IMG/VR virus record: IMGVR_UViG_3300049032_000040
Span: 1-44,668 of that record
Strand: one strand, 5' to 3'
Source: a virus
DNA length: 44,668 bases
A program made the translations under genes and the position numbers. Below the pieces are notes generated by a model. It searched no databases. It was not told the origin of the DNA and saw only the letters and a program-made list of their open reading frames with translations. This document shows, piece after piece, positions 3,693 to 44,668 of this stretch; the first letter of the stretch is position 1; each line of letters begins with the position of its first letter.

Positions 3693-5330
3693 TTAAAAGT
3701 AGACGTAGTTCTCTGACGTACCGAGCGCCCCGTCAGCAATAGCATCCATGACGGCCTCATGAGCGAGAACCGAAGACATGGCATAGTCGAACTTTTGTGG
3801 GTCAGTCGGCTTACCCAAAATGTACTGACGTTCCTTCGTCAACGGATTCAACGCCCGAGAACGAACAATCGCATTACGGAAATGAACCTCAACCCGAGCG
3901 TCACCATCATGACGGAACTTCGAATCCGGGTCATATACGTCACCACGTTGACGCTCGAGCGCCGAATGCATCTGCACAATACGGTTCGTACGCCACTCAA
4001 CAAACACACGCTCACCATACTTATACGCCCACTGGTCAATATCCGACTCCCAAAACTGAGGGTCACAATACGCGCGAACAATCTCGAACCGATTCGCCAG
4101 CTCATCCATCGCCGCATTGACCTCAGCTTTAGGGATACGCCCACCCCATTCGGCAGGCTCCCACAACGTAGGCAACTCATTCACACCATACGTAGGCGTG
4201 AACTGGAACTGGTCAAGAGTCTCAAGACGAATACCCGTGAAGTCGTTGTTGTCCGAACCATCAAACCCTAGGCATACGCGCGTACGAGGCTGGACAATCA
4301 CCTGTGGGACGGCCTTCTTCGCCACCCACTTCGGCATATCCATCCACGAACCGCTACCAGACACAATCCGGTTACCGAAAAACCGCTCAGCATCAGCCGG
4401 CGACGTCTCCAACATCTCCGCAGCTTCACCCTCAACCGCCGACAACGACACCCACGGCGCCGCCCGGTAATTGAACGCGAAAATCTTCGCCCGATCCGCC
4501 TTTTTCTTGAAGTCCAGATGTGCAGGCGGCTGCTCGAAGTCCTTGTTGACGTCCTTCGACTTCGACTCGAAAGTCCGCTGAGCCACACTGTTGTCAGCAG
4601 GGTTCCACGCGTTCGTAGTCTCAATCGCACGACCACCCATACCAGCAAGACCCTGACGCTGCTTCTTAGCCAGATTCCAGCCGCCGTTGGTCTCGAGCCA
4701 CAGCCCGGTCTCATCCTGGACAACGAAAGTCACACGCTGACCAAGCCGCGAGTTACCCTTCGACGTCACAGCATCAATCCGGCCACCATTCGGCAGACGA
4801 ATGAACTCCTCACCCGTCTTCGGAATCACATCCGACAACGGGCCAAGCTCAATCATCGGCCTCAGGGCGTCATACGTGTTATCCGTCTGATCCTCAGTCG
4901 TCGCCGTAATCTGAATCAGCGGAGTAGCCCACGGACGACCCATCGGCTCGCCAAGCTCATACTCATACACCCAGCCGCAACCACAACCATGATCACGGCA
5001 GTCATACACGTCACCCTCAGACGCGAAACCAGCAAACACAGCCGGCCCCACACCCTCAAGACACACAAACGCTGACACCAGCGGAGACTTACCCCACTTC
5101 TGAGCACGCACAAGCTGAGAACGACGCGCTACGAACGCATCCGCACCCTTGACGATTCGACCCGCAACCTTCAGGCCAGCAGCAACCGCATCATCCTTCA
5201 CCGTGTAGTGCGACAGCACAAACTTGAGCTGATCATTCCCGAGAAGAAAAGGCTCACCGCGTGATTCCTGGTCGGGAATGACACAGTGGGCCTCGATCCA
5301 TTCCGCCGTCACATACATCGGCTTAGGCAT
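3693..5330 (-). CDS. terL: Terminase large subunit
   Basis: 545 aa. Walker-A-like QKWGKSP, a VVQDE Walker-B-like motif, and a C-terminal RNaseH-like nuclease region (GFDGSDNNDFTG, CDPQFWESD). Overlaps the TerS stop by 8 nt. Confidence 0.9.
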   Translation of the reverse strand: MPKPMYVTAEWIEAHCVIPDQESRGEPFLLGNDQLKFVLSHYTVKDDAVAAGLKVAGRIVKGADAFVARRSQLVRAQKWGKSPLVSAFVCLEGVGPAVFAGFASEGDVYDCRDHGCGCGWVYEYELGEPMGRPWATPLIQITATTEDQTDNTYDALRPMIELGPLSDVIPKTGEEFIRLPNGGRIDAVTSKGNSRLGQRVTFVVQDETGLWLETNGGWNLAKKQRQGLAGMGGRAIETTNAWNPADNSVAQRTFESKSKDVNKDFEQPPAHLDFKKKADRAKIFAFNYRAAPWVSLSAVEGEAAEMLETSPADAERFFGNRIVSGSGSWMDMPKWVAKKAVPQVIVQPRTRVCLGFDGSDNNDFTGIRLETLDQFQFTPTYGVNELPTLWEPAEWGGRIPKAEVNAAMDELANRFEIVRAYCDPQFWESDIDQWAYKYGERVFVEWRTNRIVQMHSALERQRGDVYDPDSKFRHDGDARVEVHFRNAIVRSRALNPLTKERQYILGKPTDPQKFDYAMSSVLAHEAVMDAIADGALGTSENYVYF

Positions 5331-20605: not shown

Positions 20606-20802
20606 GATTCGACCGCCCGTTCGACGCGGACGAGTCGTGCACGGTTCCAGTCGTCGAGATCCGATTCGTAGAAAGCGTTGCGGCGACCCTGTTTGAAGTA
20701 GACGGGTCCGACTCCCTCACTGATGAGGTTGTAGAGGGACTGTGCCGATGCGAGGCCACAGTATGCGGCGGCCTGTGCGGTCGTGTAGATGGGGGCGCTC
20801 AT
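20602..20802 (-). CDS. Excisionase / MerR-type HTH DNA-binding protein
   Basis: YTTAQAAAYCGLASAQSLYNLISEGVGPVYFKQGRRNAFYESDLDDW matches the Xis/AlpA-type HTH pattern. Confidence 0.65.
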   Translation of the reverse strand: MSAPIYTTAQAAAYCGLASAQSLYNLISEGVGPVYFKQGRRNAFYESDLDDWNRARLVRVERAVES

Positions 20803-21005
20803 GGTCCGACCACTGTCTGCAACTCGACGTTGAGTGCGGGTGCGATGAGGGACGCATATTCGACGGTGAGGGGCCGGCGTCCCTTGAGCTGGTTGAGGAG
20901 CGACTTGTAGGGAAGTCCGGTCTGGCGGTGCAGCTCAAGGACTGAGTAGCCCGCTTGCTTGCGGAGGTGGTCGAGCCTTGCTGCGACCGGGATTTTGTTT
21001 GCCAT
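20799..21005 (-). CDS. Cro-like XRE-family HTH regulator (68 aa; leaderless start proposed)
   Basis: HTH segment YSVLELHRQTGLPYKSLLNQLKG. The ATG at 21005 lies 6 nt downstream of a -10 TACCTT. Confidence 0.7.
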   Translation of the reverse strand: MANKIPVAARLDHLRKQAGYSVLELHRQTGLPYKSLLNQLKGRRPLTVEYASLIAPALNVELQTVVGP

Positions 21006-21011
21006 GTCCTC

Positions 21012-21040
21012 AAGGTATTCCCCAATGAGGGAAAAGCCAA
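21012..21040 (-). promoter_or_regulatory. Leftward early promoter with operator O1 in its spacer
   Basis: On the minus strand: TTGGCT (21040..21035), a 17-nt spacer, TACCTT (21017..21012), 6 nt, then the ATG at 21005. The spacer is TTCCC-N6-GGGAA (21018..21033). Confidence 0.5.
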
Positions 21041-21072
21041 GCGTTTGATACATGGATTTTCAGGTTTGTGGT

Positions 21073-21089
21073 TTCCCACATGAGGGGAA
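21073..21089. promoter_or_regulatory. Operator-like inverted repeat O2 (TTCCC-N7-GGGAA)
   Basis: TTCCCACATGAGGGGAA lies in the centre of the divergent intergenic region. Confidence 0.45.
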
Positions 21090-21128
21090 CACTAGCCTTG
21101 GAGGTTGTCTACTAGCCGAACCGGAATA

Positions 21129-21158
21129 TTGGGCGTTTCCCGGAAAAGGGAATACACT
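21129..21158 (+). promoter_or_regulatory. Rightward promoter with operator O3 in its spacer
   Basis: TTGGGC (21129..21134), an 18-nt spacer, TACACT (21153..21158), 6 nt, then the ATG at 21165. The spacer holds TTCCC-N6-GGGAA (21137..21152). Confidence 0.45.
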
Positions 21159-21164
21159 CAAAGG

Positions 21165-21446
21165 ATGGCTACACCAACATCTGAGCAGATCCGTCAGGCG
21201 ATGGGTGATCTCATCAACGCTGTCTACGGTGACTTCACCGCCGCCGCCAGGGAACTCCCTTACCCGTACAAGACGTTGTGGAAGAACTTCAGCGAGCCGG
21301 GGAACAAGGACCGCACGAAGACGGTCACCCTTGACCTGGTGATGGGGATCTATGCGGCGTTAAAGGAGCGCAACCCGAAGATCCCCGACTTCTCCTTGTT
21401 CCTGTCGCTTGTCGCCGCGGGTGAGCGCGTTGATCAGATCATCTAG
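21165..21446 (+). CDS. Candidate CI-like immunity regulator (93 aa)
   Basis: Divergent from the Cro-like gene. The ATG at 21165 follows the rightward promoter. Possible HTH around AARELPYPYKTLWKNF. The function is positional inference. Confidence 0.45.
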   Translation: MATPTSEQIRQAMGDLINAVYGDFTAAARELPYPYKTLWKNFSEPGNKDRTKTVTLDLVMGIYAALKERNPKIPDFSLFLSLVAAGERVDQII

Positions 21447-21701
21447 GCTCATGCAGTTTGCCCCTTCGAGGAAAGCGGGGCATACGGTGGCGCAAGCTTT
21501 GAGGCCGGAGCAGATTGTCATGGGGCACCTTCGTTGGTGGGGAGGCGGGGTCCGGGCCTCGTGTGGGGTTGGCGGGAGTCTATATCAGATTCGGCTTTGG
21601 ATTAACATACCCACCGTTTCGAATGTTTGTTCGAGAGTAGCTGGGGCCGCTGACATTGGGAAGGGGCATCATGCCTAGTGTCATCCGATCCCCTCACTGT
21701 C

Positions 21702-21730
21702 TATACATTCGTCTTTACCGGTGGTAGACT
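21702..21730 (+). promoter_or_regulatory. Candidate promoter for the integrase operon
   Basis: TATACA, a 17-nt spacer, then TAGACT. Lies about 45 nt upstream of the ATG at 21777, which has a GGGAAGGTGGGG SD. Confidence 0.3.
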
Positions 21731-21776
21731 GTAGGCGCACCAACCGAACGTCGGAGGGTGCTGGGAAGGTGGGGAC

Positions 21777-21935
21777 ATGAGTGCCAGGGACTACGCGCTG
21801 AGGATCACCGTGAATGCCGAACCAATAGGCGGTGGCAAGGAATCCCTCGACGTTGACATCGACATCGTCGAGCCAGGCACGAAGGAATGGGCGGCGGGGC
21901 TTCTGCGCCAGATCGCAGAGGACTTAGAGCGATGA
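21777..21935 (+). CDS. Hypothetical acidic small protein (52 aa)
   Basis: MSARDYALRITVNAEPIGGGKESLDVDIDIVEPGTKEW... with a good SD. Not in the ORF track. Confidence 0.4.
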   Translation: MSARDYALRITVNAEPIGGGKESLDVDIDIVEPGTKEWAAGLLRQIAEDLER

Positions 21936-21945
21936 ACGGCGGTGC

Positions 21946-22197
21946 ATGATGGGTAGCGTGCCACCGCGGACGACTGACTCCCGGACGCAACAGCTGAGGT
22001 CTCTCATCGATACCCTCGTCGGCGTCGTGGAGCGCCGCGGCGGTTTAATCAAGCAGGATGTGGCGGCTCAAGAGTTTGGACAGATGAGCGGCGTCTTCGG
22101 TCCCGATTTCTACTACGTGGTCAACTCGGCTGTGGCAGATGGAAGGATTACCACCAGTCTCCGATCTGGAATCCTACGACTTGCGGACGGTGCATGA
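21946..22197 (+). CDS. Hypothetical protein (83 aa), starts MMGSV
   Basis: Preceded by, and containing, the 21-nt motif GGTGCATGATGGGTAGCGTGC (21941..21961). Confidence 0.55.
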   Translation: MMGSVPPRTTDSRTQQLRSLIDTLVGVVERRGGLIKQDVAAQEFGQMSGVFGPDFYYVVNSAVADGRITTSLRSGILRLADGA

Positions 22198-22340
22198 TGG
22201 GTAGCGTGCAGACCCCGGTGACGAACTTCCGCATCCCGCCCGACATCAAGGCCGCGGCCCAGGCGAAAGCGGAAGCCGAGGGCAAGACGCTCTCCCGCGT
22301 CGTCATCGACCTCCTGCGCGAGTACGCGCGCGATGCCTAG
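22194..22340 (+). CDS. Ribbon-helix-helix protein (48 aa) translationally coupled to the integrase
   Basis: MMGSVQTPVTNFRIPPDIKAAAQAKAEAEGKTLSRVVIDLLREYARDA has the beta-alpha-alpha pattern of the CopG/Arc family. Its stop overlaps the int ATG by 8 nt. Not in the ORF track. Confidence 0.6.
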   Translation: MMGSVQTPVTNFRIPPDIKAAAQAKAEAEGKTLSRVVIDLLREYARDA

Positions 22341-23478
22341 ACCACCACTCCCCCTAGAGACGTACGGGAAGATCAGCACCACGACACGTAACGGCAAGCC
22401 TGCTGCGATCACGTACTACCGGGACTCGGATGGTGTGACGCGCCGCATGTTGCGTACCGGGAAGACGGATGCTGCTGCTGTGCGCGCGTTGAAGGAAGCG
22501 TTGCGTGACAGGTTGGCGCCGGCTGGTGATGTGATCACTGCTGAGTCGACTGTTGAAGCCCTCGCCGCATCGTGGAAAGCAGAGATGCTGTCGGATGAGA
22601 AGTTGTCGGACGGTACGAAGCGCACCTACCAGGACGCGTTGAAGACTGTGCTGCGTGGCCTGTCTGGTGTGCGTGTGGTTGAGTGCACCCCCGCGAAACT
22701 GCACAAGTACATTCAGGCGGTTGCGAAGACGACGCCGGGTGCTGCACGTACGGCCCGGATTGTGTTGAAGCACATGTTTGATCATGCGGTGTGGGCTGGT
22801 GCGGTGTCTTCGAACCCGGTTGGTGAGACGAAGGCTGTGACTCCGCGTGCCCCGAACGTGAAGGCGTTGCGTGCGGGTGATATTGCGACTATTCGGGATC
22901 TGCTTGAGGTGTGGGATTCGGGGTTGGATAAGTATCAGCGGCCCCGGAATGGTTCGGTGCGGGACACGATGGACATGTATGCGTCGACTGGTGCGCGTAC
23001 GTCTGAGGTGTTGGCGCTCAGATGGACCGATTTCGACTTCACGACAGACCCGCCGACTGTCACGTTGAACGGAACCGTCGTGCGCGGACTGGACGGCAAG
23101 CTGGTGATTCAGGATCGCATGAAGACCGACAAGTCACACCGACAGCTCGAACTCCCCCCGTTCGTGGTGCCGATGCTCACAGAACGCGCCAGGACGGCCT
23201 ACAGCGAGCTTGTTTTCCCGTCCGCGGTAGGCACGCCGCGTTGGCCCGACAACCTCCGTAGGGACTGGCGCAACGCGTTGGACGGCACCATCTATGCTCG
23301 GGTCACTCCGGGTGCGTTCCGTAAGGCTGTGGCGACGTTGCTTGCGGAAGAGATGGGTGCTGAGGCGGCACGCGATCAGCTCGGGCATACGGGCTTCGGT
23401 AATCTGAAGAACTATGTGGAGCGTGCGTCTCGTGGGCCGGCGTCTGCTGGCACCGTACAGAAACTCTTGGACAAGTAG
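22333..23478 (+). CDS. int: Tyrosine integrase (phage integrase family)
   Basis: 381 aa. N-terminal SAM-like domain. Catalytic-region motifs ARTSEVLALRW, HRQLELP, FRKAVAT and LGHTGFGNLKNYVE. Confidence 0.9.
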   Translation: MPRPPLPLETYGKISTTTRNGKPAAITYYRDSDGVTRRMLRTGKTDAAAVRALKEALRDRLAPAGDVITAESTVEALAASWKAEMLSDEKLSDGTKRTYQDALKTVLRGLSGVRVVECTPAKLHKYIQAVAKTTPGAARTARIVLKHMFDHAVWAGAVSSNPVGETKAVTPRAPNVKALRAGDIATIRDLLEVWDSGLDKYQRPRNGSVRDTMDMYASTGARTSEVLALRWTDFDFTTDPPTVTLNGTVVRGLDGKLVIQDRMKTDKSHRQLELPPFVVPMLTERARTAYSELVFPSAVGTPRWPDNLRRDWRNALDGTIYARVTPGAFRKAVATLLAEEMGAEAARDQLGHTGFGNLKNYVERASRGPASAGTVQKLLDK

Positions 23479-23487
23479 ACCTAGCGG

Positions 23488-23521
23488 GGTGTATGTACAC
23501 CTGGTAAGATGTATGTACACC
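23488..23521 (+). promoter_or_regulatory. Promoter with two 14-bp palindromic operators (sites A and B)
   Basis: GGTGTATGTACACC (23488..23501). Extended -10 TGGTAAGAT (23502..23510). GATGTATGTACACC (23508..23521). GGAG SD and the ATG at 23538 follow. Confidence 0.55.
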
Positions 23522-23537
23522 CACCGATTGGAGCATC

Positions 23538-23816
23538 ATGCCTGAACCCCGGATCTACACGTCGCCCGTGGAGATCGACCTGGAAGTGATGGGCGAGTAT
23601 GCGCAGATCAGATTCTGCGACACTGGCGCATCGTACTGGGACGGTTCGCGGGTCATCCTCACCGAGCAGAAAGACGCAGACCTCGTCCGAGAGATCGCCG
23701 CTTCCATCAAGGACGAAGCGACCGAGCTTGCTCGGTCCATGGTTGCCGACATGCGACGACGCACGAACGGCAAGTCCCTCAAGCAGATGGTCACTGAACT
23801 AGAGAGCGGTGCATGA
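23538..23816 (+). CDS. Hypothetical protein (92 aa)
   Basis: ORF with an SD. Ends ...ELESGA in the conserved junction motif. Confidence 0.6.
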   Translation: MPEPRIYTSPVEIDLEVMGEYAQIRFCDTGASYWDGSRVILTEQKDADLVREIAASIKDEATELARSMVADMRRRTNGKSLKQMVTELESGA

Positions 23817-24232
23817 TGGGCGTGATCACCTTCGAGAACATTGAGGACGCGGCTCGCATCGTCTATGGCACGTCGCCTGTGTCCGTGATCACCCCCTGGG
23901 ATCAGGCAAGCCACGAAAGGCGAGAGCCGTTCATTCGCGCAGCAGTTCAGGCGATGAACGTGCTCATCAAGTCTGGTGAAACCGAGTATCAGGTTACCGA
24001 TGGTGAGGGTGACGCTTGGGCCTGGTCGGATGACATCGATGAGGCGTTGCACTATCTCGCGCAGGAGCCAGGAGGGCGTCTCGAGGTTCGTTCCGTGTTG
24101 AACTGGGCACCGATCAAGTCGGGCGGCGTGGAAGACAAGCTTTGCTGGTGTTCGCGGTGTGATCAGCCGTTGTGGGTTGCACTGGACGGCGGCTCAACTT
24201 GCGCATGTGGCGTGGTCCACACGGTGAAGTGA
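23813..24232 (+). CDS. Hypothetical protein with a C-terminal zinc ribbon (139 aa)
   Basis: Starts MMGV in the junction motif. C-terminus CWCSRCDQPLWVALDGGSTCACG. Confidence 0.6.
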   Translation: MMGVITFENIEDAARIVYGTSPVSVITPWDQASHERREPFIRAAVQAMNVLIKSGETEYQVTDGEGDAWAWSDDIDEALHYLAQEPGGRLEVRSVLNWAPIKSGGVEDKLCWCSRCDQPLWVALDGGSTCACGVVHTVK

Positions 24233-24353
24233 TGTGGTGCTGGGTCTATCGGGGCGGGGAACAGTCCAAGGGTTACCGGGCAACAAGCACCGGGCCGCGG
24301 GGACGGCATGGAGGAACCGAGCACTCCACCAAGATCGACGACCCGGCGTCAGT

Positions 24354-24375
24354 AAACAGCCACTAAACAGCCACC
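24354..24375 (+). repeat. 22-bp direct repeat, copy 1 (candidate integrase arm-type site)
   Basis: AAACAGCCACTAAACAGCCACC. Internally it is two AAACMGCCAC units. Confidence 0.8.
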
Positions 24376-24387
24376 GGGCACGAAAAA

Positions 24388-24425
24388 GCCCCTCCGATCG
24401 TGTGACCGGAGGGGCTTTGTTGTCA
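24388..24425. terminator. Bidirectional rho-independent terminator
   Basis: GCCCCTCCG (24388..24396) pairs with CGGAGGGGC (24407..24415). It is flanked by AAAAA upstream and TTTGTTGT downstream. Confidence 0.65.
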
Positions 24426-24436
24426 GTGTTTTCTAG

Positions 24437-24505
24437 GGGTGGCGAGTGAGGGATTCGAACCCCCGAATGCTGAGCAGTCTGATATGCCGTACGCACTACG
24501 GGGGT
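24437..24505 (-). other. Probable attP core: 3' portion of a tRNA gene (T-arm plus acceptor), not a complete tRNA
   Basis: On the minus strand GGGGG-TTCGAAT-CCCTC, then ACTCGCC, A, CC (24464..24438). No cloverleaf can be completed upstream. Lies about 1 kb downstream of int and is flanked by the 22-bp direct repeats. Confidence 0.5.
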
Positions 24506-24574
24506 CTAATCTTGCCTACTTTTCCGCGTGTTTCCGGGGAAGAGTAGTCCTGGGTAGTGTGACGTAGCTCACGA

Positions 24575-24596
24575 AAACAGCCACTAAACCGCCACC
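24575..24596 (+). repeat. 22-bp direct repeat, copy 2 (one mismatch to copy 1)
   Basis: AAACAGCCACTAAACCGCCACC. Confidence 0.8.
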
Positions 24597-24612
24597 AGAT
24601 ACCTATGGCGCG

Positions 24613-24635
24613 GGTGTATGTACACCTGGTAAACT
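24613..24635 (+). promoter_or_regulatory. Promoter with palindromic operator (site E) driving a leaderless start
   Basis: GGTGTATGTACACC (24613..24626). Extended -10 TGGTAAACT (24627..24635). Six nt later, the ATG at 24642. Confidence 0.55.
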
Positions 24636-24641
24636 CGAAGC

Positions 24642-25040
24642 ATGACGAAGAAAGACATGCGCGCAATCGCCAAGTGCCTGGCAGGCGAGGACCGCGAGGC
24701 CAAAGCCGCCCTGGTACACCGTCGCCGAGAGGCGGGGTTGAAGCAGTCGGACATCGATGAGGCGTTAGGGGTGCCGGATGGGTGGACCCACGACATTGAG
24801 GCCTACGATTCCGACCCCTCGCTCTCCGACATGCGCAGGTACGAAGCCTACGTCACATACATTGAAGGATGCCGCGACTTCAACCCCGCCGAGGAAGTAG
24901 ACGAGCGGGAAGCGATCTTTGAAGAGTGGGCAGACGAGTTTCGCGACAGTGACGAGTACCGCGAGTACAACACAATCTTCCCTGGAACCGCTTTCATGGC
25001 CGGGTGGGATGCCGCACTCGGGGCGATCAATCATGAGTGA
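24642..25040 (+). CDS. HTH (XRE-like) regulator with an acidic C-terminal domain (132 aa)
   Basis: HTH-like segment LKQSDIDEALGVPDGWTHDIE. Leaderless context. Confidence 0.6.
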   Translation: MTKKDMRAIAKCLAGEDREAKAALVHRRREAGLKQSDIDEALGVPDGWTHDIEAYDSDPSLSDMRRYEAYVTYIEGCRDFNPAEEVDEREAIFEEWADEFRDSDEYREYNTIFPGTAFMAGWDAALGAINHE

Positions 25041-25224
25041 TGATGAACGCGCGGCTTGCCCGTGGTGCGGGAAGCTGACGTATAACTTTCTTCACTCATG
25101 CCCGCTCCGAACCACCTGCACGCGGTGTGATGGCTTCGAAGAGGAGGCGTCGGACACCTGCACCTGCTGGTGTCACCCACGCGGACCCTTCGAGCCCTGG
25201 CCATCAACTATCGGCGGTGCGTGA
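25033..25224 (+). CDS. Small zinc-finger protein (63 aa)
   Basis: MSDDERAACPWCGKLTYNFLHSCPLRTTCTRCDG...CTCWCH. The ATG overlaps the upstream stop by 8 nt. Confidence 0.5.
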   Translation: MSDDERAACPWCGKLTYNFLHSCPLRTTCTRCDGFEEEASDTCTCWCHPRGPFEPWPSTIGGA

Positions 25225-25382
25225 TGGTCACCATTGTTGACCCGACGAATGAGAACGTAGCGATCGTGGATGGCGAGATTGGACATGCTCTCCGAGTGGC
25301 GAAGGTCGCCGATCCGACGCGCCCCACGGTTGCCGAACTAGCGGGCGGCAAGATCATCGGATACGGCAACTTCACCTCTTGA
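25224..25382 (+). CDS. Hypothetical small protein (52 aa)
   Basis: The ATG at 25224 shares 1 nt with the upstream TGA. Confidence 0.4.
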   Translation: MVTIVDPTNENVAIVDGEIGHALRVAKVADPTRPTVAELAGGKIIGYGNFTS

Positions 25383-25418
25383 CAGGTGTACATACACCCG
25401 ATACCGTGTATGTACACC
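25379..25418 (+). promoter_or_regulatory. Consensus-like promoter with two palindromic operators (sites C and D)
   Basis: TTGACA (25379..25384), a 17-nt spacer, TACCGT (25402..25407). GGTGTACATACACC (25385..25398) fills the spacer. CGTGTATGTACACC (25405..25418) covers the -10 and the start site. AAGGAGG and the ATG at 25436 follow. Confidence 0.6.
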
Positions 25419-25435
25419 CACCAAGGAGGGGCACC

Positions 25436-25588
25436 ATGAACGTTCAGATGACAATCAACGCAGCAACCGAACCCGTACACGAACACCACCGGTTGCCCCG
25501 TATCCTCACGAAAACGTTCTGGGTACAGTCAGACCCGAACCCCGAATACTCCCGACTCGACCACCTCGACGGACTAGGAACACGATGA
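25436..25588 (+). CDS. Hypothetical small protein (50 aa)
   Basis: The ATG at 25436 lies 6 nt after AAGGAGG. Confidence 0.45.
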   Translation: MNVQMTINAATEPVHEHHRLPRILTKTFWVQSDPNPEYSRLDHLDGLGTR

Positions 25589-25881
25589 GTAACACGGCTT
25601 ACCGAGCTGAAGCTGCGAAGCGACGGGACGCGGCACGAATGAGCAAGTCGGAACTGTCCGAGCTGTCCGACATGCTCAAGAAGGCGGCGCGCAGCCTGGA
25701 TGATGCCCTCAAGTACGAGTCGGCATCCGCGAAGCATCCGACTGCACTGCGACACGAAGAAGAAGCCAGCGACCGCATCGACGCCGCGATCATGTACTTC
25801 GCCGCGATCCGATCTCGGGCGATCCCCGGACCCACCATGCGTGCGGATGGAAGCATCTACGACGCGATGGACGGTGCATGA
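25585..25881 (+). CDS. Hypothetical helical protein (98 aa)
   Basis: ATGA-coupled at both ends. Ends ...AMDGA in the junction motif. Confidence 0.55.
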   Translation: MSNTAYRAEAAKRRDAARMSKSELSELSDMLKKAARSLDDALKYESASAKHPTALRHEEEASDRIDAAIMYFAAIRSRAIPGPTMRADGSIYDAMDGA

Positions 25882-26039
25882 TGCCGAAGAACGAAGCGCT
25901 GCACCGCGATCACTCCCACGCGATTGTCACAGAGTCGTACAAGCTGAGGAATGTTGATCGCGTTGCTACTCACGAACTTCTCCGCTGCTTGAATGACGGT
26001 TGGTTCGGATGGGTTGCGAAGATCAAGGACGGTGCATGA
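25878..26039 (+). CDS. Hypothetical small protein (53 aa), starts MMP
   Basis: MMPKNEALHRDHSHAIVTESYKLRNVDRVATHELLRCLNDGWFGWVAKIKDGA. Junction motif at both ends. Not in the ORF track. Confidence 0.45.
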   Translation: MMPKNEALHRDHSHAIVTESYKLRNVDRVATHELLRCLNDGWFGWVAKIKDGA

Positions 26040-26350
26040 TGGGAAACGTGGCGAATCAACCGAAGACCCCCCACCGCACCATCCGTGTCTCACACGACAT
26101 CTGGAACGCGGCACAAGAGAAAGCCAAAACTGAGGGCCGCACACTGTCCGAACTGATCCGCGAATTCCTCACCGACTACGTAGACGGACGCGACGCCACA
26201 CGGATCGAACGCATCGAAACCATCCTCGACGGCATCGACCGTGTAGAAGACGGAACCGGTACAGGCTGGTGGGCAACAAGCGTCGGCGCAGAATTCGGGA
26301 CCGAGAAGCTTGCACAAATCCGAGACGCCATCACCGGCCACACCGACTAG
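26036..26350 (+). CDS. Ribbon-helix-helix protein, paralog of 22194..22340 (104 aa)
   Basis: MMGNVANQPKTPHRTIRVSHDIWNAAQEKAKTEGRTLSELIREFLTDY aligns with the int-proximal RHH, with about half the residues identical over about 33 aa by eye. Confidence 0.6.
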   Translation: MMGNVANQPKTPHRTIRVSHDIWNAAQEKAKTEGRTLSELIREFLTDYVDGRDATRIERIETILDGIDRVEDGTGTGWWATSVGAEFGTEKLAQIRDAITGHTD

Positions 26351-26373
26351 CGCGACTCCCCACGCGCTCCCCG

Positions 26374-26412
26374 GAGTGCGGCACCGTGTATCCCCACACT
26401 GGTGCCGCACTC
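26374..26412 (+). promoter_or_regulatory. Strong stem-loop inside the plus-strand operon (attenuator or processing signal)
   Basis: GAGTGCGGCACC (26374..26385) pairs with GGTGCCGCACTC (26401..26412), and an inner GTGT pairs with ACAC. No T-tract follows. Confidence 0.5.
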
Positions 26413-26456
26413 GCCCCTCCCACCACAGGACTACCACACCAAGGAGAAAAACCATC

Positions 26457-26555
26457 ATGGATGCCATGAACTATGACGACGTGGACCCGATGCCCGTTGG
26501 ACTCATCGACCGGATGCTCAACGCCGTACACGCCGAGATGGGAGACGCGGAATGA
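26457..26555 (+). CDS. Hypothetical mini-protein (32 aa)
   Basis: AAGGAGAAAAACCATC precedes the ATG at 26457. MDAMNYDDVDPMPVGLIDRMLNAVHAEMGDAE. Confidence 0.35.
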   Translation: MDAMNYDDVDPMPVGLIDRMLNAVHAEMGDAE

Positions 26556-26695
26556 TCGCCTCGGATGCTCAGACGCTAGCCGCGCTCAACGCCTACGACG
26601 ACCGCTTTGCCACGGACTACATCGACGATTACTCACCGGAGCACATCGCGGACATGCGCAGGGCTGTCACCGCGGCCCTTTCCGCCCAGCAGTAA
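26552..26695 (+). CDS. Hypothetical mini-protein (47 aa)
   Basis: ATGA overlap with the previous stop. MIASDAQTLAALNAYDDRFATDYIDDYSPEHIADMRRAV... Confidence 0.35.
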   Translation: MIASDAQTLAALNAYDDRFATDYIDDYSPEHIADMRRAVTAALSAQQ

Positions 26696-26717
26696 CCACC
26701 AAACGAAAGAAGAACAC

Positions 26718-26810: not shown

Positions 26811-26820
26811 GCACACACAC

Positions 26821-26865
26821 AAAAGAAGCCCCCTACCTGTTTTGGGTAGGGGGCTTCTTCGTTTC
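26821..26865. terminator. Bidirectional rho-independent terminator between the convergent plus and minus blocks
   Basis: Perfect 14-bp stem: AGAAGCCCCCTACC (26824..26837) pairs with GGTAGGGGGCTTCT (26845..26858). T-rich sequence follows the stem on both strands. Confidence 0.8.
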
Positions 26866-30743: not shown

Positions 30744-31090
30744 TCTTTTGTCTCCAAATGCTCATCAAACTTGCGCTCGAGCTTCTTCACGGCGTCCTTC
30801 AAACTCGACCCGTGATTCGTCGTCACCTCGTGCTGAACGACCGCCAACGCCGCCGACTGCTTAGCGAGAGACACTGACTGTTCGTCCTGCTTCTCCTCCA
30901 CCACGGACAGGCGCTCCATCAGCCCTGGACGTGCAGGAACCCCCGCGCGTGCAGGCTCGCCGGCAACGTCATCAACGAAATGGTTGATCTTCCGCAGAAA
31001 CGGGAACACCTTCACCCCCACCCAGACCAGCACGCCGATAGCGGCCAACCAGGGTGTTACAGGGATCAGGTCGATAATCCACGCGGGCAT
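30740..31090 (-). CDS. Membrane protein of the lysis cassette (N-terminal TM plus coiled coil; holin or accessory)
   Basis: WIIDLIPVTPWLAAIGVLVWVGVKVFPFL followed by a helical, charged tail. Lies between the endolysin and the holin. Confidence 0.55.
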   Translation of the reverse strand: MPAWIIDLIPVTPWLAAIGVLVWVGVKVFPFLRKINHFVDDVAGEPARAGVPARPGLMERLSVVEEKQDEQSVSLAKQSAALAVVQHEVTTNHGSSLKDAVKKLERKFDEHLETKE

Positions 31091-31980
31091 CAGCTCGAGA
31101 GTCGTTTCGCGGCGTCGTCGTTCACGGCCTTCGCGATCGCGGTGTAATCGACCTTCGCGGTCGGTGTGCCGGTGGCCTCCACGACCGCATCTGCGATCGC
31201 CCTGACCTGCTCCTCGGTGATGCCACCCGACTGTGCAGCAGCGTTCGTCGACGCGAGGAACCCGGACGCGGGGAACTGCACGGGCTTTCCACCCGAGACC
31301 GCAGCGCCCCCCTTACCGTCCTGCGCCGTGACCAGGTGCCCCCACACGTTCTGCGGGATGACCTTGATCAGCGCAGAAACGCCCTTCTCGAGAAGGTCGA
31401 TACGCTCCCACAGCGTGGGTCCGAGCTGGCCGTTCGCGCCGAAGCCTCCAGGCCGCGCCTCGTACTGCAGAGCACGCTGCACGCTGTAGCGGATGTTCTT
31501 CAGGTCTTCCTCATTGAGGGGCATGTCGTCCTCCGTGGTTGATCCGCCCGCAGTTGAGCCGAGACGGTTAGCGATGAAAGGCACAGGATCTACCTGTCCA
31601 GTGTTCGAGTAGTGCACGTTGCCGGGGGTGACCTCGAAGTGAAGGTGGTCGTCGCTCGCGGTTCCGGTCTGCCCCATGATGCAGAGCGGGTCACCCTCAC
31701 GAACCCACTGCCCGACCTTCACCAGCAGAGACGCGGCATGCAGCGACTTGGTGAAGAACCCGTCGTGCTGCACCCACACCTGAATGCCACCACCAGACCA
31801 ACCACCCGGTGTCCCAGCAACCTTCACCTGACCCGACTCGACCGCCCGGATGATCGTGAACGTGTGCGAGAAGTCAGTCCCCTTGTGGTTCTTCGACGCG
31901 TTCGGAACGTTGATGTTCCGTGGGCCGAACGGGGACGACACGTACGGTTTCGATGTTGAACCGTTAGGCCAAACAGTCAT
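31090..31980 (-). CDS. Endolysin, M23 (LytM-type) peptidase with a C-terminal domain
   Basis: Motifs HKGTDF and DDHLHFEV, a G/S/T linker, then a C-terminal domain of about 150 aa. Confidence 0.8.
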   Translation of the reverse strand: MTVWPNGSTSKPYVSSPFGPRNINVPNASKNHKGTDFSHTFTIIRAVESGQVKVAGTPGGWSGGGIQVWVQHDGFFTKSLHAASLLVKVGQWVREGDPLCIMGQTGTASDDHLHFEVTPGNVHYSNTGQVDPVPFIANRLGSTAGGSTTEDDMPLNEEDLKNIRYSVQRALQYEARPGGFGANGQLGPTLWERIDLLEKGVSALIKVIPQNVWGHLVTAQDGKGGAAVSGGKPVQFPASGFLASTNAAAQSGGITEEQVRAIADAVVEATGTPTAKVDYTAIAKAVNDDAAKRLSS

Positions 31981-31998
31981 TGCGGTGCCCCTTCCGAC

Positions 31999-32352
31999 TT
32001 AGGCGTGTTCGTCTCGGGCGGCGTCGTACTCGAAATGCTGCTGCTCGCGGATGATGCCATTGCTCCAAAAGATCGTCTGGAACCAGCCGTGCTCGTTCAG
32101 CAGGTCGGCATGATCGAACCAATCGAGGGTGTCGATAGCGAGACCATCCGGGTGCGCCGAATCGTCCGGGTGGCGCGAGTAGACACCGACACCGTCCTGC
32201 CACTCCTGCCACAACTGGCCCTGGAAATCACGCGACAGTCCAGCGGCATCAACCGAGAGCGGACGCCCCAGTGCCGCATCGAGTCTTGCGACCGATGCGG
32301 CGGCGGGCGCGTCCAACCATCCGCGGTGATCGGTGAGTTCTACGGCTTCCAT
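31999..32352 (-). CDS. M15-family (LAS, VanY-like) peptidoglycan peptidase
   Basis: SAHPDGLAID fits SxHxxGxAxD, and there is a C-terminal EQQHFEY (ExxH). Confidence 0.7.
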   Translation of the reverse strand: MEAVELTDHRGWLDAPAAASVARLDAALGRPLSVDAAGLSRDFQGQLWQEWQDGVGVYSRHPDDSAHPDGLAIDTLDWFDHADLLNEHGWFQTIFWSNGIIREQQHFEYDAARDEHA

Positions 32353-32361
32353 CAGTTCCCC

Positions 32362-33519
32362 TTATCCGTACAGCGGGCGGTGTCGGTACGCAGGTTCGAC
32401 ACCACGAATTCCGTAGTAGTCATCGACGATGTTGTAGCTCGGGCGCGACCCGTTGTACTCCATGAGGGAGTCCGCCATTTCGTTCGGCCACAGCGCGCCA
32501 AGGATGTCGACGTACGCCCAAATCCGGTTCGTGTAGGCGCCGGATCGGTAGTAGGTCGTGCCCTCGTACTGTGGTTCGTCCGACGTGTTGAACCACAGCA
32601 CTTCGAACGTGGGGTTGCGGGTCCAGTAGACCTGCTGAAGAAACCACCCCTGCATGTTCGATCCATCTGGGGTGACATGATCGAACAGCCACTCACCGCT
32701 CAGGCGTGCATACTCGGCGGCAACGGTCATTCCTGCAAGGTGAGAGTTGCTGTACAGCAGCCCATATGCGCCGTTGCCCTGTCCTGGCCCCATCCGGTAG
32801 ATCTCATGGATCGGGATGTTGTACCGCACTTCGCCTTGCAGGTCGATGCCCGACTTGATCGACGAGTCGAACAGTTGCCGCCACCGAGTGCATGCGCGGA
32901 GGAGTCGTGGACGGTCGTCGAAGAACGGCGCGGCGATCATCTCCATGCCCAGACCCCACGCTGCCCAGTTGTTCGGGCGGGTGTAGGCGATCGGCTCGAA
33001 CGTGTCGAACGCCAGCTCGAGCACAGCCTTGAAGTTCGCTTCAACAGTCGGTGTGTATGCGACAGAACCGCGGACCATCATCGCGGCCTGAACGAACAGC
33101 GGCCAACCCTCAAACCACCGCAGGGTGCTTCCGGGGTTCGTGTCGAATGACGGGGTGAGCGAGTACTCGGAGAGGATCGCGACGACCTGTTCTGCGTCCG
33201 ACTCGTTGCCGTTGACAAGGTAACGCCATGCGTAGTCAACGCACGGCATCAGGTCCGCACGGAACAGTGCCAGTGCCTCAGTGGGGTCGCCCGTGTCGCC
33301 GTAGTTCTCCGGGAAATACCACACGTCAGCCGGTCGCATGATCGTGTGCGTTGCGGGACGAGACATCACAAGGTTCCACTTCGACTGCATGCGAGGCGTC
33401 ATGGTTCCGGTCGTGATCTTGTCCCGCAACGAATCGATCCGCGCGGGGTGAATCAGTGGCCCGCCGAACTTCTCCGGGTGAGACCTAGTGCGCGCATCTT
33501 CTGCGAGAAACAGTGTCAT
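32362..33519 (-). CDS. Polysaccharide-lyase-like (alginate lyase / heparinase-type alpha-toroid) protein
   Basis: RPNNWAAWG resembles the NNHSYW motif of PL5-type lyases, with W in place of H. W/Y-rich and helical. ATG at 33519 in an ATGA overlap. The family call is tentative. Confidence 0.4.
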   Translation of the reverse strand: MTLFLAEDARTRSHPEKFGGPLIHPARIDSLRDKITTGTMTPRMQSKWNLVMSRPATHTIMRPADVWYFPENYGDTGDPTEALALFRADLMPCVDYAWRYLVNGNESDAEQVVAILSEYSLTPSFDTNPGSTLRWFEGWPLFVQAAMMVRGSVAYTPTVEANFKAVLELAFDTFEPIAYTRPNNWAAWGLGMEMIAAPFFDDRPRLLRACTRWRQLFDSSIKSGIDLQGEVRYNIPIHEIYRMGPGQGNGAYGLLYSNSHLAGMTVAAEYARLSGEWLFDHVTPDGSNMQGWFLQQVYWTRNPTFEVLWFNTSDEPQYEGTTYYRSGAYTNRIWAYVDILGALWPNEMADSLMEYNGSRPSYNIVDDYYGIRGVEPAYRHRPLYG

Positions 33520-34478
33520 CGTCGCTCCCAACGCACCCCAAGCAGTAGCGCCGTCGAAAGGAACGTGTCTTCTGCATCGTCACCACCCAGTCGGGCGACG
33601 GTCAGACGAATCGTGTTCTCGTGGGTGCCGTCCAACGCCAGGGCATCAGTCGTCGGCGCCGCAATCACTGTGTTCTGTGCCGTCATGCCCGCCGTCACGT
33701 TCAGGACAGAACCCGCAGCATTCGTAGCCGCCCCGTCTTCCAGAACCGCCGCACGAAGGTTCCACCGCACACCACCAGAAGGCGAGGCGGTCGTTGTCGC
33801 ACACAGCACCGTGAAACCCACCGAGTACACACCACGGGGAATAGTCACCAGCGTTCCAACGACCTTGACATCGTTGTCAACGAAAGCCCAAGCGGGCGCC
33901 GAAGCAGTCGTATTGGCGGACGGGGAAAGTGAGGACATCGTTGGCGGTCTGTTGTCGACCGGGCCGAAGCGGTTCGCGCCAAGAGTCTCCTCGGACCGCG
34001 TCTCCGTGGCCTGCAAGACCGCAGAAGACGAATCCAGCAGCAACGCGATGAGCTGATGGAGGGTCAGAGTCGCGGGATCGTACCAGCGGTCATATACCGG
34101 GTCCATGAGGAGTCCCGGATCGACTGAACCAAGGAAGACGTTGCAGGCGCCGGGGACGCGTATCGGGTAGCCAGTTACCTCGTCGTACAGCCGGTAGACG
34201 ATGTACACAGCGTCAGCCGCCGCACGCGTCTCCGTGTCGGGCGAAGACAAGTACGTCGCGAACGCCGTATCATTCGCCACCGCGTTCGTACCAGGAAGGC
34301 CACGCGGCTGGAAGAAGTGGATGTACTGACCCTCATCGCCCGAAATGACCGGCGTGATATCCACCGTCTCATACGGGACAACCTCAGCGGTCGCAGCATC
34401 AAAAGTACCCGCCCGCCCCTTAGGACCAACCGGACCACGGATGTTCGCAAGCCATTCAGCATAAAGAGGAAGCGCCAT
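33516..34478 (-). CDS. Minor tail / receptor-binding candidate with a short collagen-like stretch
   Basis: N-terminal GPVGPKGRAGTF (G-X-Y x4). The C-terminal half is beta-rich. Lies in the tail-tip gene block. Confidence 0.55.
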   Translation of the reverse strand: MALPLYAEWLANIRGPVGPKGRAGTFDAATAEVVPYETVDITPVISGDEGQYIHFFQPRGLPGTNAVANDTAFATYLSSPDTETRAAADAVYIVYRLYDEVTGYPIRVPGACNVFLGSVDPGLLMDPVYDRWYDPATLTLHQLIALLLDSSSAVLQATETRSEETLGANRFGPVDNRPPTMSSLSPSANTTASAPAWAFVDNDVKVVGTLVTIPRGVYSVGFTVLCATTTASPSGGVRWNLRAAVLEDGAATNAAGSVLNVTAGMTAQNTVIAAPTTDALALDGTHENTIRLTVARLGGDDAEDTFLSTALLLGVRWERR

Positions 34479-34959: not shown

Positions 34960-34983
34960 AAAAAAGCGCCCCATGGGGACGCG
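34960..34983 (-). terminator. Hairpin plus T6 on the minus strand, inside the tail operon
   Basis: The minus strand reads GCGTCCCCATGGGGCGC followed by TTTTTT (34965..34960). It lies 15 nt upstream of the ATG at 34945. Confidence 0.5.
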
Positions 34984-34990
34984 AAAACTC

Positions 34991-35019
34991 TTGCGGTGTA
35001 CATACACGACGCGTACACT
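34991..35019 (+). promoter_or_regulatory. Promoter with palindromic operator (site F) driving a leaderless lipoprotein gene
   Basis: TTGCGG (34991..34996), a 17-nt spacer, TACACT (35014..35019), 6 nt, then the ATG at 35026. GGTGTACATACACG (34995..35008) lies in the spacer. Confidence 0.55.
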
Positions 35020-35025
35020 CAAACC

Positions 35026-35451
35026 ATGAACAAGAAGCCGGTAGCCGCACTCGCAGTACTGCTAGCACTCACCCTCACCGGGTGTGCATCGGCCACGGGG
35101 AACGCGGCAGAAGAGGTAACGGCACCAGTCGTCACCGAAACCGCGGCACCCGAAGAAACCCCGGCTCCGCTCGTAGCCGAAGAACCCGCAAACGAAGCAA
35201 GCGGCCCGGATGCCAAGTTCCTCGAGTACGTGCGCGGTGCGATCCTGCCCGAGACTCAGATCGGCAACGCAACCGACCAGCAACTCATCGACGCAGGACA
35301 CGAAGCCTGCCGACAGCTCGAAGCCGGAACCGCACTCGAAGACGTGCGCGTAGTAGAAGGTGAGATCGCCCACCCGTCGACCGGCGCCTACTACGACACC
35401 AGCGCGATCATGGGTGGGGCGATCCTCAACTACTGCCCCCAGTTTGCCTAG
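35026..35451 (+). CDS. DUF732-family lipoprotein, inverted within the tail operon
   Basis: Signal peptide plus lipobox MNKKPVAALAVLLALTLTGC. An A/E/P linker. C-terminal domain with FL.YV...DQQLIDAGHEAC...AILNYCPQF, the DUF732 pattern. Confidence 0.8.
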   Translation: MNKKPVAALAVLLALTLTGCASATGNAAEEVTAPVVTETAAPEETPAPLVAEEPANEASGPDAKFLEYVRGAILPETQIGNATDQQLIDAGHEACRQLEAGTALEDVRVVEGEIAHPSTGAYYDTSAIMGGAILNYCPQFA

Positions 35452-44209: not shown

Positions 44210-44668
44210 TTACGCCGTGGCGTCGAACTCAACGACCGCAAGAGCAGTCGGACGAACGACCTTCGCGCCGTACACGTGAAGACCCTTCACACCATCAGCG
44301 AATCGCTTCTCGAGACGCACGGCCTCAACCGAAGTGATCTGCTCAGCGAACGTGGTCGCCATACGGTGACCAGCAATCGCGATGCCACCAGTCGCGGCCA
44401 CATCAGTGACAGCGGGGAGGTTGTTCGACTTGTACAGCTCGAGTCCAGCGATCGACCCGATGTAGCCGTTCTGACGGGCCGCGGGTGCAGCCTGGTCGCC
44501 AGGGGTGATGAACGTGTCGAGCTTCAGCAGACGACCGTGCAGGGCCGGGGAAACGACCGCGAAACGGCCCTCCTCCGGTACGTTGTCCGTGTCGAGCGTC
44601 ACCGCAAGATCAACGAACGTGTCATACAGGTTCTTCGCGGTCGTGTGGATCGCAACCGTACCCAGGTC
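44210..44668 (-). CDS. Major capsid protein, 3' part (continuation of 1..529)
   Basis: The reading frame is open from the window end to the stop at 44210. C-terminus ...GVKGLHVYGAKVVRPTALAVVEFDATA. Confidence 0.85.
   Translation of the reverse strand, partial: DLGTVAIHTTAKNLYDTFVDLAVTLDTDNVPEEGRFAVVSPALHGRLLKLDTFITPGDQAAPAARQNGYIGSIAGLELYKSNNLPAVTDVAATGGIAIAGHRMATTFAEQITSVEAVRLEKRFADGVKGLHVYGAKVVRPTALAVVEFDATA
44542..44668. repeat. Second copy of the 127-bp terminal overlap
   Basis: Identical to 1..127. Confidence 0.95.

Follow-up and report, generated by a model that had tools for sequence, protein, structure and literature searches.

Small repressors of the ribbon-helix-helix (RHH) superfamily control promoters from short operators in several established systems. 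Arc of the Salmonella phage P22 acts at Pant in immI through a single 21-bp operator, which lies between the -35 and -10 elements and is occupied by two dimers, while CopG (RepA) of pMV158 is autoregulated through a short 13-bp pseudo-symmetric element over a single promoter in plasmid copy-number control, and omega of pSM19035 (PDB 2bnw, 2bnz, 2cax) serves several promoters with 7-10 contiguous heptads of the repeat WATCACW. Dispersed sites for one phage repressor are found in the cluster A mycobacteriophages (L5, Bxb1), whose helix-turn-helix (HTH) immunity repressor binds many short, scattered and asymmetric 13-bp stoperators, mostly in transcribed regions and some far from the repressor gene, and thereby stops elongation. 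Here, six copies of a 14-bp palindrome, GGTGTAYRTACACC, are described in a temperate actinobacterial phage, which is represented by the 44,668-bp JGI metagenome record IMGVR_UViG_3300049032_000040 of IMG/VR (analysed over its whole length, positions 1 to 44,668, and hereafter called the window). We put at roughly 0.75 the probability that these palindromes, termed boxes A to F, are operators of the phage's own RHH protein, RHH2 (26036-26350), which would be autoregulated and would repress four promoters.

A circuit of this kind is ordinary and Arc/CopG/omega-like, whereas the operator has not been described before and the operator framework found across the protein family goes beyond the routine. 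A full-text literature search for the box sequences returned only unrelated eukaryotic primer matches, and a keyword search on RHH or Arc-like repressors in actinophages gave none on this family among the matches listed. Like Arc, RHH2 is a small phage RHH protein encoded in an operon that it would itself repress, from an operator between -35 and -10 and in a circuit apart from the primary immunity switch. However, the sequence kinship of the two proteins is at the superfamily level only, with Arc among the non-significant structural matches of RHH2, the single 21-bp site contrasts with a 14-bp palindrome at four promoters, and, unlike in immI, searches of the controlled genes with Pfam, PHROG and PADLOC turned up no antirepressor. 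The likeness to omega consists in an RHH protein that acts at several promoters with varying numbers of short repeats, and two inverted 7-bp units, of the length of the omega unit, can be made out in the 14-bp box; yet the profile match is weak (E=0.97), the repeat reads GGTGTAY, and one to three separated palindromes 19-24 bp apart stand in place of contiguous heptads. CopG shares the autoregulation and the short element over the promoter, but RHH2 stays below the cutoff of the Pfam 'copG family' (see below). By profile, the closest solved structure is AvtR of Acidianus filamentous virus 6 (4hv0), likewise a viral RHH regulator (106 aa) with a C-terminal extension, but it comes from an archaeal virus, its match covers the helices only and not the N-terminal arm and strand, and its operator is unrelated. 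As with the stoperators, one phage repressor would serve short scattered sites, some far from its gene; here, however, these are six symmetric promoter sites and the protein is an RHH protein and not the immunity repressor. Compared to Arc, CopG and omega, RHH2 has its own sequence family, a GGTG..CACC operator, four dispersed promoters and a conserved proline-rich N-terminal arm.

A scan of the window with GGTGTAYRTACACC at up to two mismatches returned exactly six matches (starting at 23488, 23508, 24613, 25385, 25405 and 34995), compared to a mean of 0.31 and a maximum of 3 in 100 dinucleotide-preserving shuffles, none of which reached six. Given without strand, these are box A (23488-23501, GGTGTATGTACACC), box B (23508-23521, GATGTATGTACACC), box E (24613-24626, GGTGTATGTACACC), box C (25385-25398, GGTGTACATACACC), box D (25405-25418, CGTGTATGTACACC) and, 9.6 kb away, box F (34995-35008, GGTGTACATACACG). 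At up to three mismatches, 8 matches were found against 3.97 expected, so that the two extra ones are at chance level, and a scan of the window for the GGTG-N6-CACC frame gave no palindromic copy beyond the six. The plus-strand block (about 21165-26700) likewise holds no GGTG-N4/5/7/8-CACC palindrome, and since frames of other spacing yield none there, the set of boxes is considered complete. The six copies had been noted by eye in an initial annotation of the sequence, in which no further ones were seen, and both points were borne out by these scans. All six boxes are intergenic rather than scattered in coding regions, each upstream of one or more plus-strand genes: A and B follow the integrase stop (23478) and precede an ATG at 23538, E stands 16 nt ahead of the ATG at 24642, C and D occupy the gap from a stop at 25382 to the ATG at 25436, and F is flanked by the start of a tail-region gene on the minus strand (34946) and the ATG of a lipoprotein gene at 35026. 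The centre-to-centre distance is 20 bp for both A/B and C/D; the earlier argument that exactly 20 bp puts paired sites on the same helix face is weak, since tandem spacing in relatives is 19, 20, 21, 22, 24 or 36 bp.

The four promoters are predicted from the actinobacterial TANNNT rule together with a layout that is kept in relatives. Boxes A, C, E and F are followed after 3-5 nt by a TANNNT hexamer, namely TAAGAT (23505-23510), TACCGT (25402-25407), TAAACT (24630-24635) and TACACT (35014-35019), all on the plus strand. TAAGAT and TACCGT share the first three bases of boxes B and D, respectively, so that these two boxes begin within a -10 hexamer, extend about 11 nt past it and lie over both the hexamer and the predicted start site. 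Box A lies in the spacer before the extended -10 element TGGTAAGAT, and box F in the spacer between TTGCGG and TACACT. Box C directly abuts the -35 hexamer TTGACA (25379-25384, plus strand) and sits inside the 17-nt spacer to TACCGT; the TTGACA/TACCGT pair had been recognised correctly, but the box does not fill the spacer exactly, as it takes up 14 of the 17 bases. At E and F, exactly 6 nt separate the hexamer from the ATG (24642 and 35026), which is the arrangement of leaderless actinobacterial mRNAs, and the genes behind both boxes look leaderless. With the A of the ATG as +1, box E spans -29 to -16 of its predicted leaderless promoter, and the general register is approximately -29 to -16 for the spacer boxes A, C, E and F and approximately -9 to +5 for B and D.

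The same layouts recur in related loci (designated by L numbers) although the flanks have diverged or are otherwise unrelated. TTGAC[AG], a box, 3 nt and a TANNNT hexamer that overlaps a second box are found in L016, L017, L018, L046, L146, L148, L149, L155 and L156, with TTGAC[AG] abutting the first box in L016, L146, L148, L149, L155 and L156. The leaderless order of box, 3-5 nt, TANNNT, 6 nt and ATG, which is seen at boxes E and F of the window, is present in L016, L099, L119, L120, L146, L149, L155 and L156. Among 69 distinct boxes of the family, TANNNT follows within 2-6 nt in 38% (background 1.1%) and TTGAC stands just before the box in 20% (background 0.4%), and information content falls sharply at the box edges.

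Comparison of box-bearing relatives points to RHH2 as the protein that goes with the boxes. A scan of IMG/VR for the exact tandem arrangement identified three high-G+C contigs carrying tandem boxes, and two of these, L004 and L005, have one regulator in common with the window, which is the N-terminal half of the 26036-26350 protein; protein searches then added closer relatives. Apart from the integrase, RHH2 is the sole protein of the plus-strand block of the window that is in common with L016, L017, L004 and L005, and it is the only regulator common to all box-bearing relatives. In at least 15 related, mosaic phages, the boxes have the promoter positions that they have in the window. In L016, L017, L146/L147, L148, L149, L154, L155 and L156 they lie behind the integrase, beside the attP-side repeat and in front of the RHH operon, in tandems of up to three and with up to six or seven boxes per genome; the position of box A after the integrase stop recurs in L016, L017, L146, L149, L155 and L156, and the equivalent of box E beside the attP-side repeat in L016, L146, L155 and L156. 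GGTGTAYRTACACC-type boxes occur about 1.3 kb or less upstream in 15 of 16 distinct loci with an HRT-arm RHH (H-R-T-[IV]-R-[VI]), and the lone box-free locus, L097, is a 2.2-kb contig. RHH2 orthologs are only 46-76% identical overall, yet the arm N-[QKA]-P-K-T-P-H-R-T-[IV]-R-[VI] is unchanged. The recurrence of the boxes in these positions supports the dedicated repressor-operator circuit on four plus-strand promoters suggested earlier, and the comparison of homologous phages for co-variation of sites and regulators shows that the boxes track the RHH gene and not the HTH gene at 24642-25040.

Two of the tandem arrays are of interest in themselves. In L001 (IMGVR_UViG_3300037193_002008), a perfect tandem at 104-137 consists of GGTGTACATACACC, 6 nt and GGTGTATGTACACC in a divergent intergenic region of an element with 66.7% G+C. 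In L155 (8477-8530), three tandem boxes with an exact spacing of 20 bp stand directly after a different integrase gene, and the unit 'cacTACCGTGTATGTAC[AG]CC' is duplicated, which shows that operators are multiplied by local duplication.

RHH2 is one member of a large family, since 696 representative clusters were obtained at 50% identity and E<=1e-10. An alignment-based scan of viral and metagenome contigs identified about 130 loci with an RHH protein that has the N-[QK]-P-K-T-P arm, 112 of them distinct, while a search for related loci with the single RHH2 sequence found nothing. Across the 112 distinct loci, strict palindromic GGTG-N6-CACC occurs at 0.446/kb within -1300 to +300 of the RHH gene versus 0.018/kb elsewhere, a 24-fold difference, and the boxes adjoin the RHH gene in hosts spanning 43-74% G+C. 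Many family loci have one or two boxes 60-95 bp upstream of the RHH coding sequence, which indicates that these genes would be under direct autoregulation. The inner bases of the boxes go with the residues of the arm: H-R-T is paired with GGTGTAYRTACACC, N-R-V with GGTGCAYATGCACC, L-R-S mostly with GGTGTATATACACC, Q-R-T/A with GGTGTC... and K-R-G with GGTGTGGGCACACC. The residue after PKTP predicts bases 5-6 of the box, with TA for H (9/9), CA for N (20/23), TC for Q (2/2) and TG for K (1/1). In every bin of helix identity, the box type was shared by 57-100% of pairs with the same residue versus 0-38% of pairs with differing residues, and at 10-30% helix identity by about 90% versus 5-14%; because the link holds within each bin, overall relatedness does not explain it. 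On this basis, a wider generalization can be offered tentatively, and we rate its chances somewhat below even: that the actinophage RHH family shares a GGTG-N5-7-CACC spacer framework in which one or two residues of the strand decide on the inner bases, and that the cassette governs prophage cargo separately from the immunity switch, notably genes for envelope lipoproteins or membrane proteins that are oriented against the tail operon.

Isolates also carry members of this family, which include the Gordonia phages Kenna, Getalong, Phistory and Hedwig, Mycobacterium cluster F1-type phages and M. abscessus prophages, where they are labelled only 'Arc-like repressor' or 'RHH/HTH DNA binding protein'. 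In Kenna (L152, MK279906, record positions 30746-33596), gp43 has the arm KRGIRM, two GGTGTGGGCACACC boxes lie upstream, and gp43 is the first in a plus-strand run of genes whose last member is the tyrosine integrase gp49; the second RHH gene of the window, RHH1, overlaps the integrase start. These arrangements hint at a link between the RHH family and the expression of the integrase in some phages.

RHH2 is encoded on the plus strand and has 104 aa (MMGNVANQPKTPHRTIRV..., N-terminus NQPKTPHRTIRV), with an N-terminal RHH domain followed by a helical C-terminal extension. It matches the PHROG phrog_6506 'Arc-like repressor' over residues 4-49 (E=2.1e-14), and a profile of its family retrieved AvtR (4hv0, E=1.9e-6) from the PDB sequences, followed weakly by ORF56, RelB, DinJ, CopG and omega. 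The NikA-like match reaches 22.7 bits (cutoff 27), while several close homologs have a precomputed PF01402 match. Taken together, the profile matches assign RHH2, as far as sequence can tell, to the RHH (Arc/MetJ/CopG) superfamily. The AF2 monomer model (pLDDT 79.6) has an extended N-terminus, helices 19-31 and 36-70 and the helical C-terminal extension; no strand was assigned, which is expected because the dimer partner is absent. Read from the sequence, H-R-T-I-R-V of RHH2 alternates like Q9-F10-N11-L12-R13-W14 of Arc. Q9, N11 and R13 of Arc face the DNA, and by analogy H12, T14 and R16 of RHH2 should do so. R16 is invariant in the family, and so are T10 and most of the arm. The C-terminal extension is absent from most RHH2 orthologs, and since these still keep tandem boxes, it is not needed for the operator layout. 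A role of RHH2 as the antitoxin of a type II toxin-antitoxin system was rejected, as no conserved partner exists and the downstream genes vary, encode 31-63 aa and match no toxin family; the RelB and DinJ matches are weak and at the superfamily level.

In the mechanism that we propose, RHH2 would be made from the C/D operon and repress its own promoter by negative autoregulation, and it would also repress the A/B, E and F promoters, which are predicted to drive the variable accessory genes flanking attP and the reverse DUF732 lipoprotein gene in the tail region. As the boxes lie in the -35/-10 spacer or over the -10 hexamer and start, RHH2 bound there would exclude RNA polymerase, and box centres near -22 and over the start site fit repression and do not fit activation. 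The part that reads the DNA is likely the conserved N-terminal arm and beta-strand, N-Q-P-K-T-P-H-R-T-I-R-V, in which the invariant residues would contact the outer GGTG/CACC and the variable H12 and T14 the inner bases. Each box could take up a single dimer whose arms point outward or, in the manner of omega, a pair of dimers seated on 7-bp half-sites. The circuit would operate independently of the TTCCC..GGGAA switch at 21018-21152. As for timing, our guess is a low, steady, autoregulated expression in the lysogen rather than a shut-off after infection; the controlled genes occupy typical places of prophage-expressed cargo.

Several points weigh against this proposal. The whole case for RHH2 operators is built on sequence. 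RHH2 misses the threshold of Pfam RHH_1 (PF01402, the 'copG family') with 19.4 bits against a cutoff of 20.5, and the top matches of the monomer model in a Foldseek search of the PDB are RHH proteins with E>1, which is not significant. The RHH2 gene of the window is the fourth gene of its operon, about 620 bp downstream of C/D, and hence not beside the operator. At the family level, 59 of the 112 loci are without a strict 14-bp box near the RHH gene; clades of this kind often have 13-bp (GGTGTATTACACC) or 15-bp versions at the same spacer position, while in the low-G+C HRSVRL clade a de novo search of up to 220 bp upstream revealed no box. The tandem pair of L001 is accompanied by no detectable RHH in the available 2.7 kb. 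The NRA and LRS arms go with more than one box type, and the control for the covariation was a stratification by overall identity and not a phylogenetic model. Lastly, a scan for E. coli-type sigma-70 consensus promoters made no call at any of the four places. The claim of the initial annotation that every copy sits on a recognisable promoter therefore holds by the TANNNT rule and the conserved layout and fails by the E. coli-type scan; the latter was judged ill-suited to actinobacterial promoters and was not counted as evidence against them.

Other proteins could in principle bind the boxes. It is unlikely, in our view, that the binder is RHH1, a 48-aa paralog translationally coupled to the integrase (22194-22340, plus strand; arm QTPVTNFRIP; its stop overlaps the integrase start), or that RHH1 shares or competes for the boxes with RHH2, as a pair of regulators may do with a common set of operators. 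RHH1 belongs to the same PHROG as RHH2 (phrog_6506, E=1.7e-10), its sub-type (x-T-x-[FVM]-R-I-P) goes with GGTGTAYRTACACC-type boxes in L067, L081, L122 and L126 and with close variants in L063 and L091, and the window contains no other GGTG..CACC-type box that could serve as RHH1's own operator. However, RHH1 is devoid of the N-Q-P-K part of the conserved arm, and among the box-bearing genomes screened, RHH1-type genes were found in the window and L018 only, whereas L016, L017, L045, L046, L099, L113 and L119 combine boxes with an RHH2-type gene only (the screen left out L146, L148, L149, L154, L155 and L156, all of which have boxes and an RHH2-type gene). Both RHH paralogs had been named as candidate binders, and of the two 26036-26350 is the common denominator, while 22194-22340 occurs in just two box-bearing genomes. 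The first-named candidate, the weak HTH protein 24642-25040, fared worse and is a highly improbable repressor. Box E lies on its own promoter, which would amount to autoregulation, and the protein has weak HTH_31 and phrog_1373 matches; but it has no homolog in any phage record or box-bearing relative, and a protein that 15 box-bearing genomes do without cannot be the cognate binder. Moreover, the box-E slot precedes different genes in L016, L146 and L156, and the sole two homologs of the HTH protein (69-73% identical across its HTH half) lie mid-operon on short contigs with no box even at 3 mismatches.

That a transcription factor of the host binds the palindromes, so that the accessory genes of the phage are wired into a host regulon, would suit a palindrome of a size common to many bacterial dimeric regulators. 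Nevertheless, we regard this as very improbable: the tandem pattern is present in no actinobacterial genome among 185,579 species representatives (one genome each), a scan that gave chance-like matches in unrelated taxa only and neither a host regulon nor prophage copies, and a host factor would explain neither why box variants track the arm residues of phage RHH proteins nor why boxes adjoin the RHH gene across hosts of 43-74% G+C. There is hardly more than a slight chance that the palindromes are structural or recombinational elements, such as post-integrase hairpin terminators or sequences at module boundaries, a reading for which it can be said that A/B start 10 nt past the integrase stop and that the box-plus-promoter cassette is mobile between mosaic genomes, as in L017, which has a different integrase and an identical 3' junction. 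A perfect 14-bp palindrome with no loop and no T-run is, however, not an intrinsic terminator, and a terminator scan lists none there; the register of the boxes is fixed to the -35/-10 hexamers and start codons and not to gene ends, and the drop of information content at the box edges speaks against such a role as well.

Repression by RHH2 would place a varied set of genes under common control. Behind A/B, two overlapping plus-strand genes at 23538-24232 (23538-23816, 92 aa; 23813-24232, 139 aa with a Cys-rich C-terminus) match no Pfam, PHROG or PADLOC family. Three plus-strand genes follow box E at 24642-25382, which are 24642-25040 (132 aa; HTH_31 at 20.1 bits against a cutoff of 27, and phrog_1373 at E=7e-4), 25033-25224 (63 aa, Cys-rich) and 25224-25382 (52 aa). 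The operon behind C/D (25436-26695, plus strand) consists of 25436-25588, 25585-25881, 25878-26039, the RHH2 gene at 26036-26350, 26457-26555 and 26552-26695, and terminates at a hairpin near 26820-26860. Behind box F, the plus-strand gene 35026-35451 encodes a DUF732 lipoprotein of 141 aa (lipobox LTLTGC; Pfam 37.5 bits, cutoff 22.4) and runs opposite to the neighbouring minus-strand tail genes. For ten box-controlled proteins, PADLOC revealed no defence family, and Pfam and PHROGs gave nothing beyond DUF732 and the weak HTH matches. The cargo genes behind the promoters vary among relatives, and the RHH gene alone is conserved. The region from lysis genes to integrase and reverse-oriented genes within the tail operon are typical actinophage sites of prophage-expressed cargo, and the controlled genes of the window lie between the lysis genes and the integrase, with the addition of the reverse lipoprotein gene within the tail operon. 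In four other loci (L067, 4222-4706; L063, 4772-5279; L027, 3071-3609; L023, 3003-3439), boxes are found immediately 3' of a short RHH gene and precede a lipoprotein or membrane-protein gene that adjoins oppositely oriented tail genes; these envelope proteins are unrelated to DUF732, and the recurring cassette of RHH gene, box and envelope-protein gene parallels box F of the window. Beside box F, a GC-rich terminator-like hairpin with a T-run is located on the minus strand at 34966-34982, just upstream of the ribosome-binding site and ATG (34946), where it would halt minus-strand transcription that reads antisense through the lipoprotein gene, an odd feature in the middle of a late operon.

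These results would provide an operator and a regulon, both concrete and open to test, for proteins that carry only generic labels in phages of Gordonia and Mycobacterium and in prophages of M. abscessus. They identify accessory genes, including the DUF732 lipoprotein gene in the tail operon, that would be controlled apart from immunity, and bear on how prophage cargo genes are expressed. If the correspondence of residues to bases holds true, it would provide ready-made orthogonal repressor-promoter pairs with compact leaderless promoters for actinobacterial genetics, and as a recognition code it would predict that RHH2 H12N/T14V shifts its preference from GGTGTAYRTACACC to GGTGCATATGCACC.

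The window has an exact 127-bp terminal direct repeat (1-127 and 44542-44668) and is hence taken as a complete phage genome of about 44.5 kb, from a circular assembly opened in the head-gene region. The terminase (3693-5330, minus strand) is 52% identical to its best match, in Streptomyces phage Kromp, and when the region was compared with 50,697 phage records for near-identical DNA, none matched, so that the phage is without a close relative in culture. Most genes are on the minus strand, while the plus-strand block is rich in small genes and includes the tyrosine integrase (22333-23478). Three TTCCC-N6/7-GGGAA inverted repeats (0.14 expected) are confined to 21018-21152, between a divergent Cro/CI-type HTH gene (20799-21053, minus strand) and the plus-strand gene 21165-21446 (93 aa). 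This region is likely the immunity switch, and its operator is unrelated to the GGTG..CACC boxes, in agreement with the initial annotation, which had set the two circuits apart.

A tRNA/tmRNA-like 3' end (T-arm, acceptor and CCA) on the minus strand at about 24437-24470 fits the core of attP, and ARAGORN and Rfam detected no complete tRNA in the attP region. It is flanked by the direct repeats AACAGCCACTAAAC[AC]GCCACC at 24355-24375 and 24576-24596, which are candidate arm sites of the integrase around the attP core. Between the integrase gene and attP, which is located roughly 1 kb further downstream, stand two box-controlled genes. Five copies of the 11-mer GGTGCATGATG (21941, 22189, 23808, 25873, 26031) all fall on gene junctions of the plus-strand block, where the upstream gene ends in ..(D)GA-stop and the next one starts with ATGATG(GG). 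In L016, L018, L046, L146 and L149, this junction is also found before the RHH gene, and GGTGCATGATG may be a conserved linker for the recombinational exchange of cargo cassettes.

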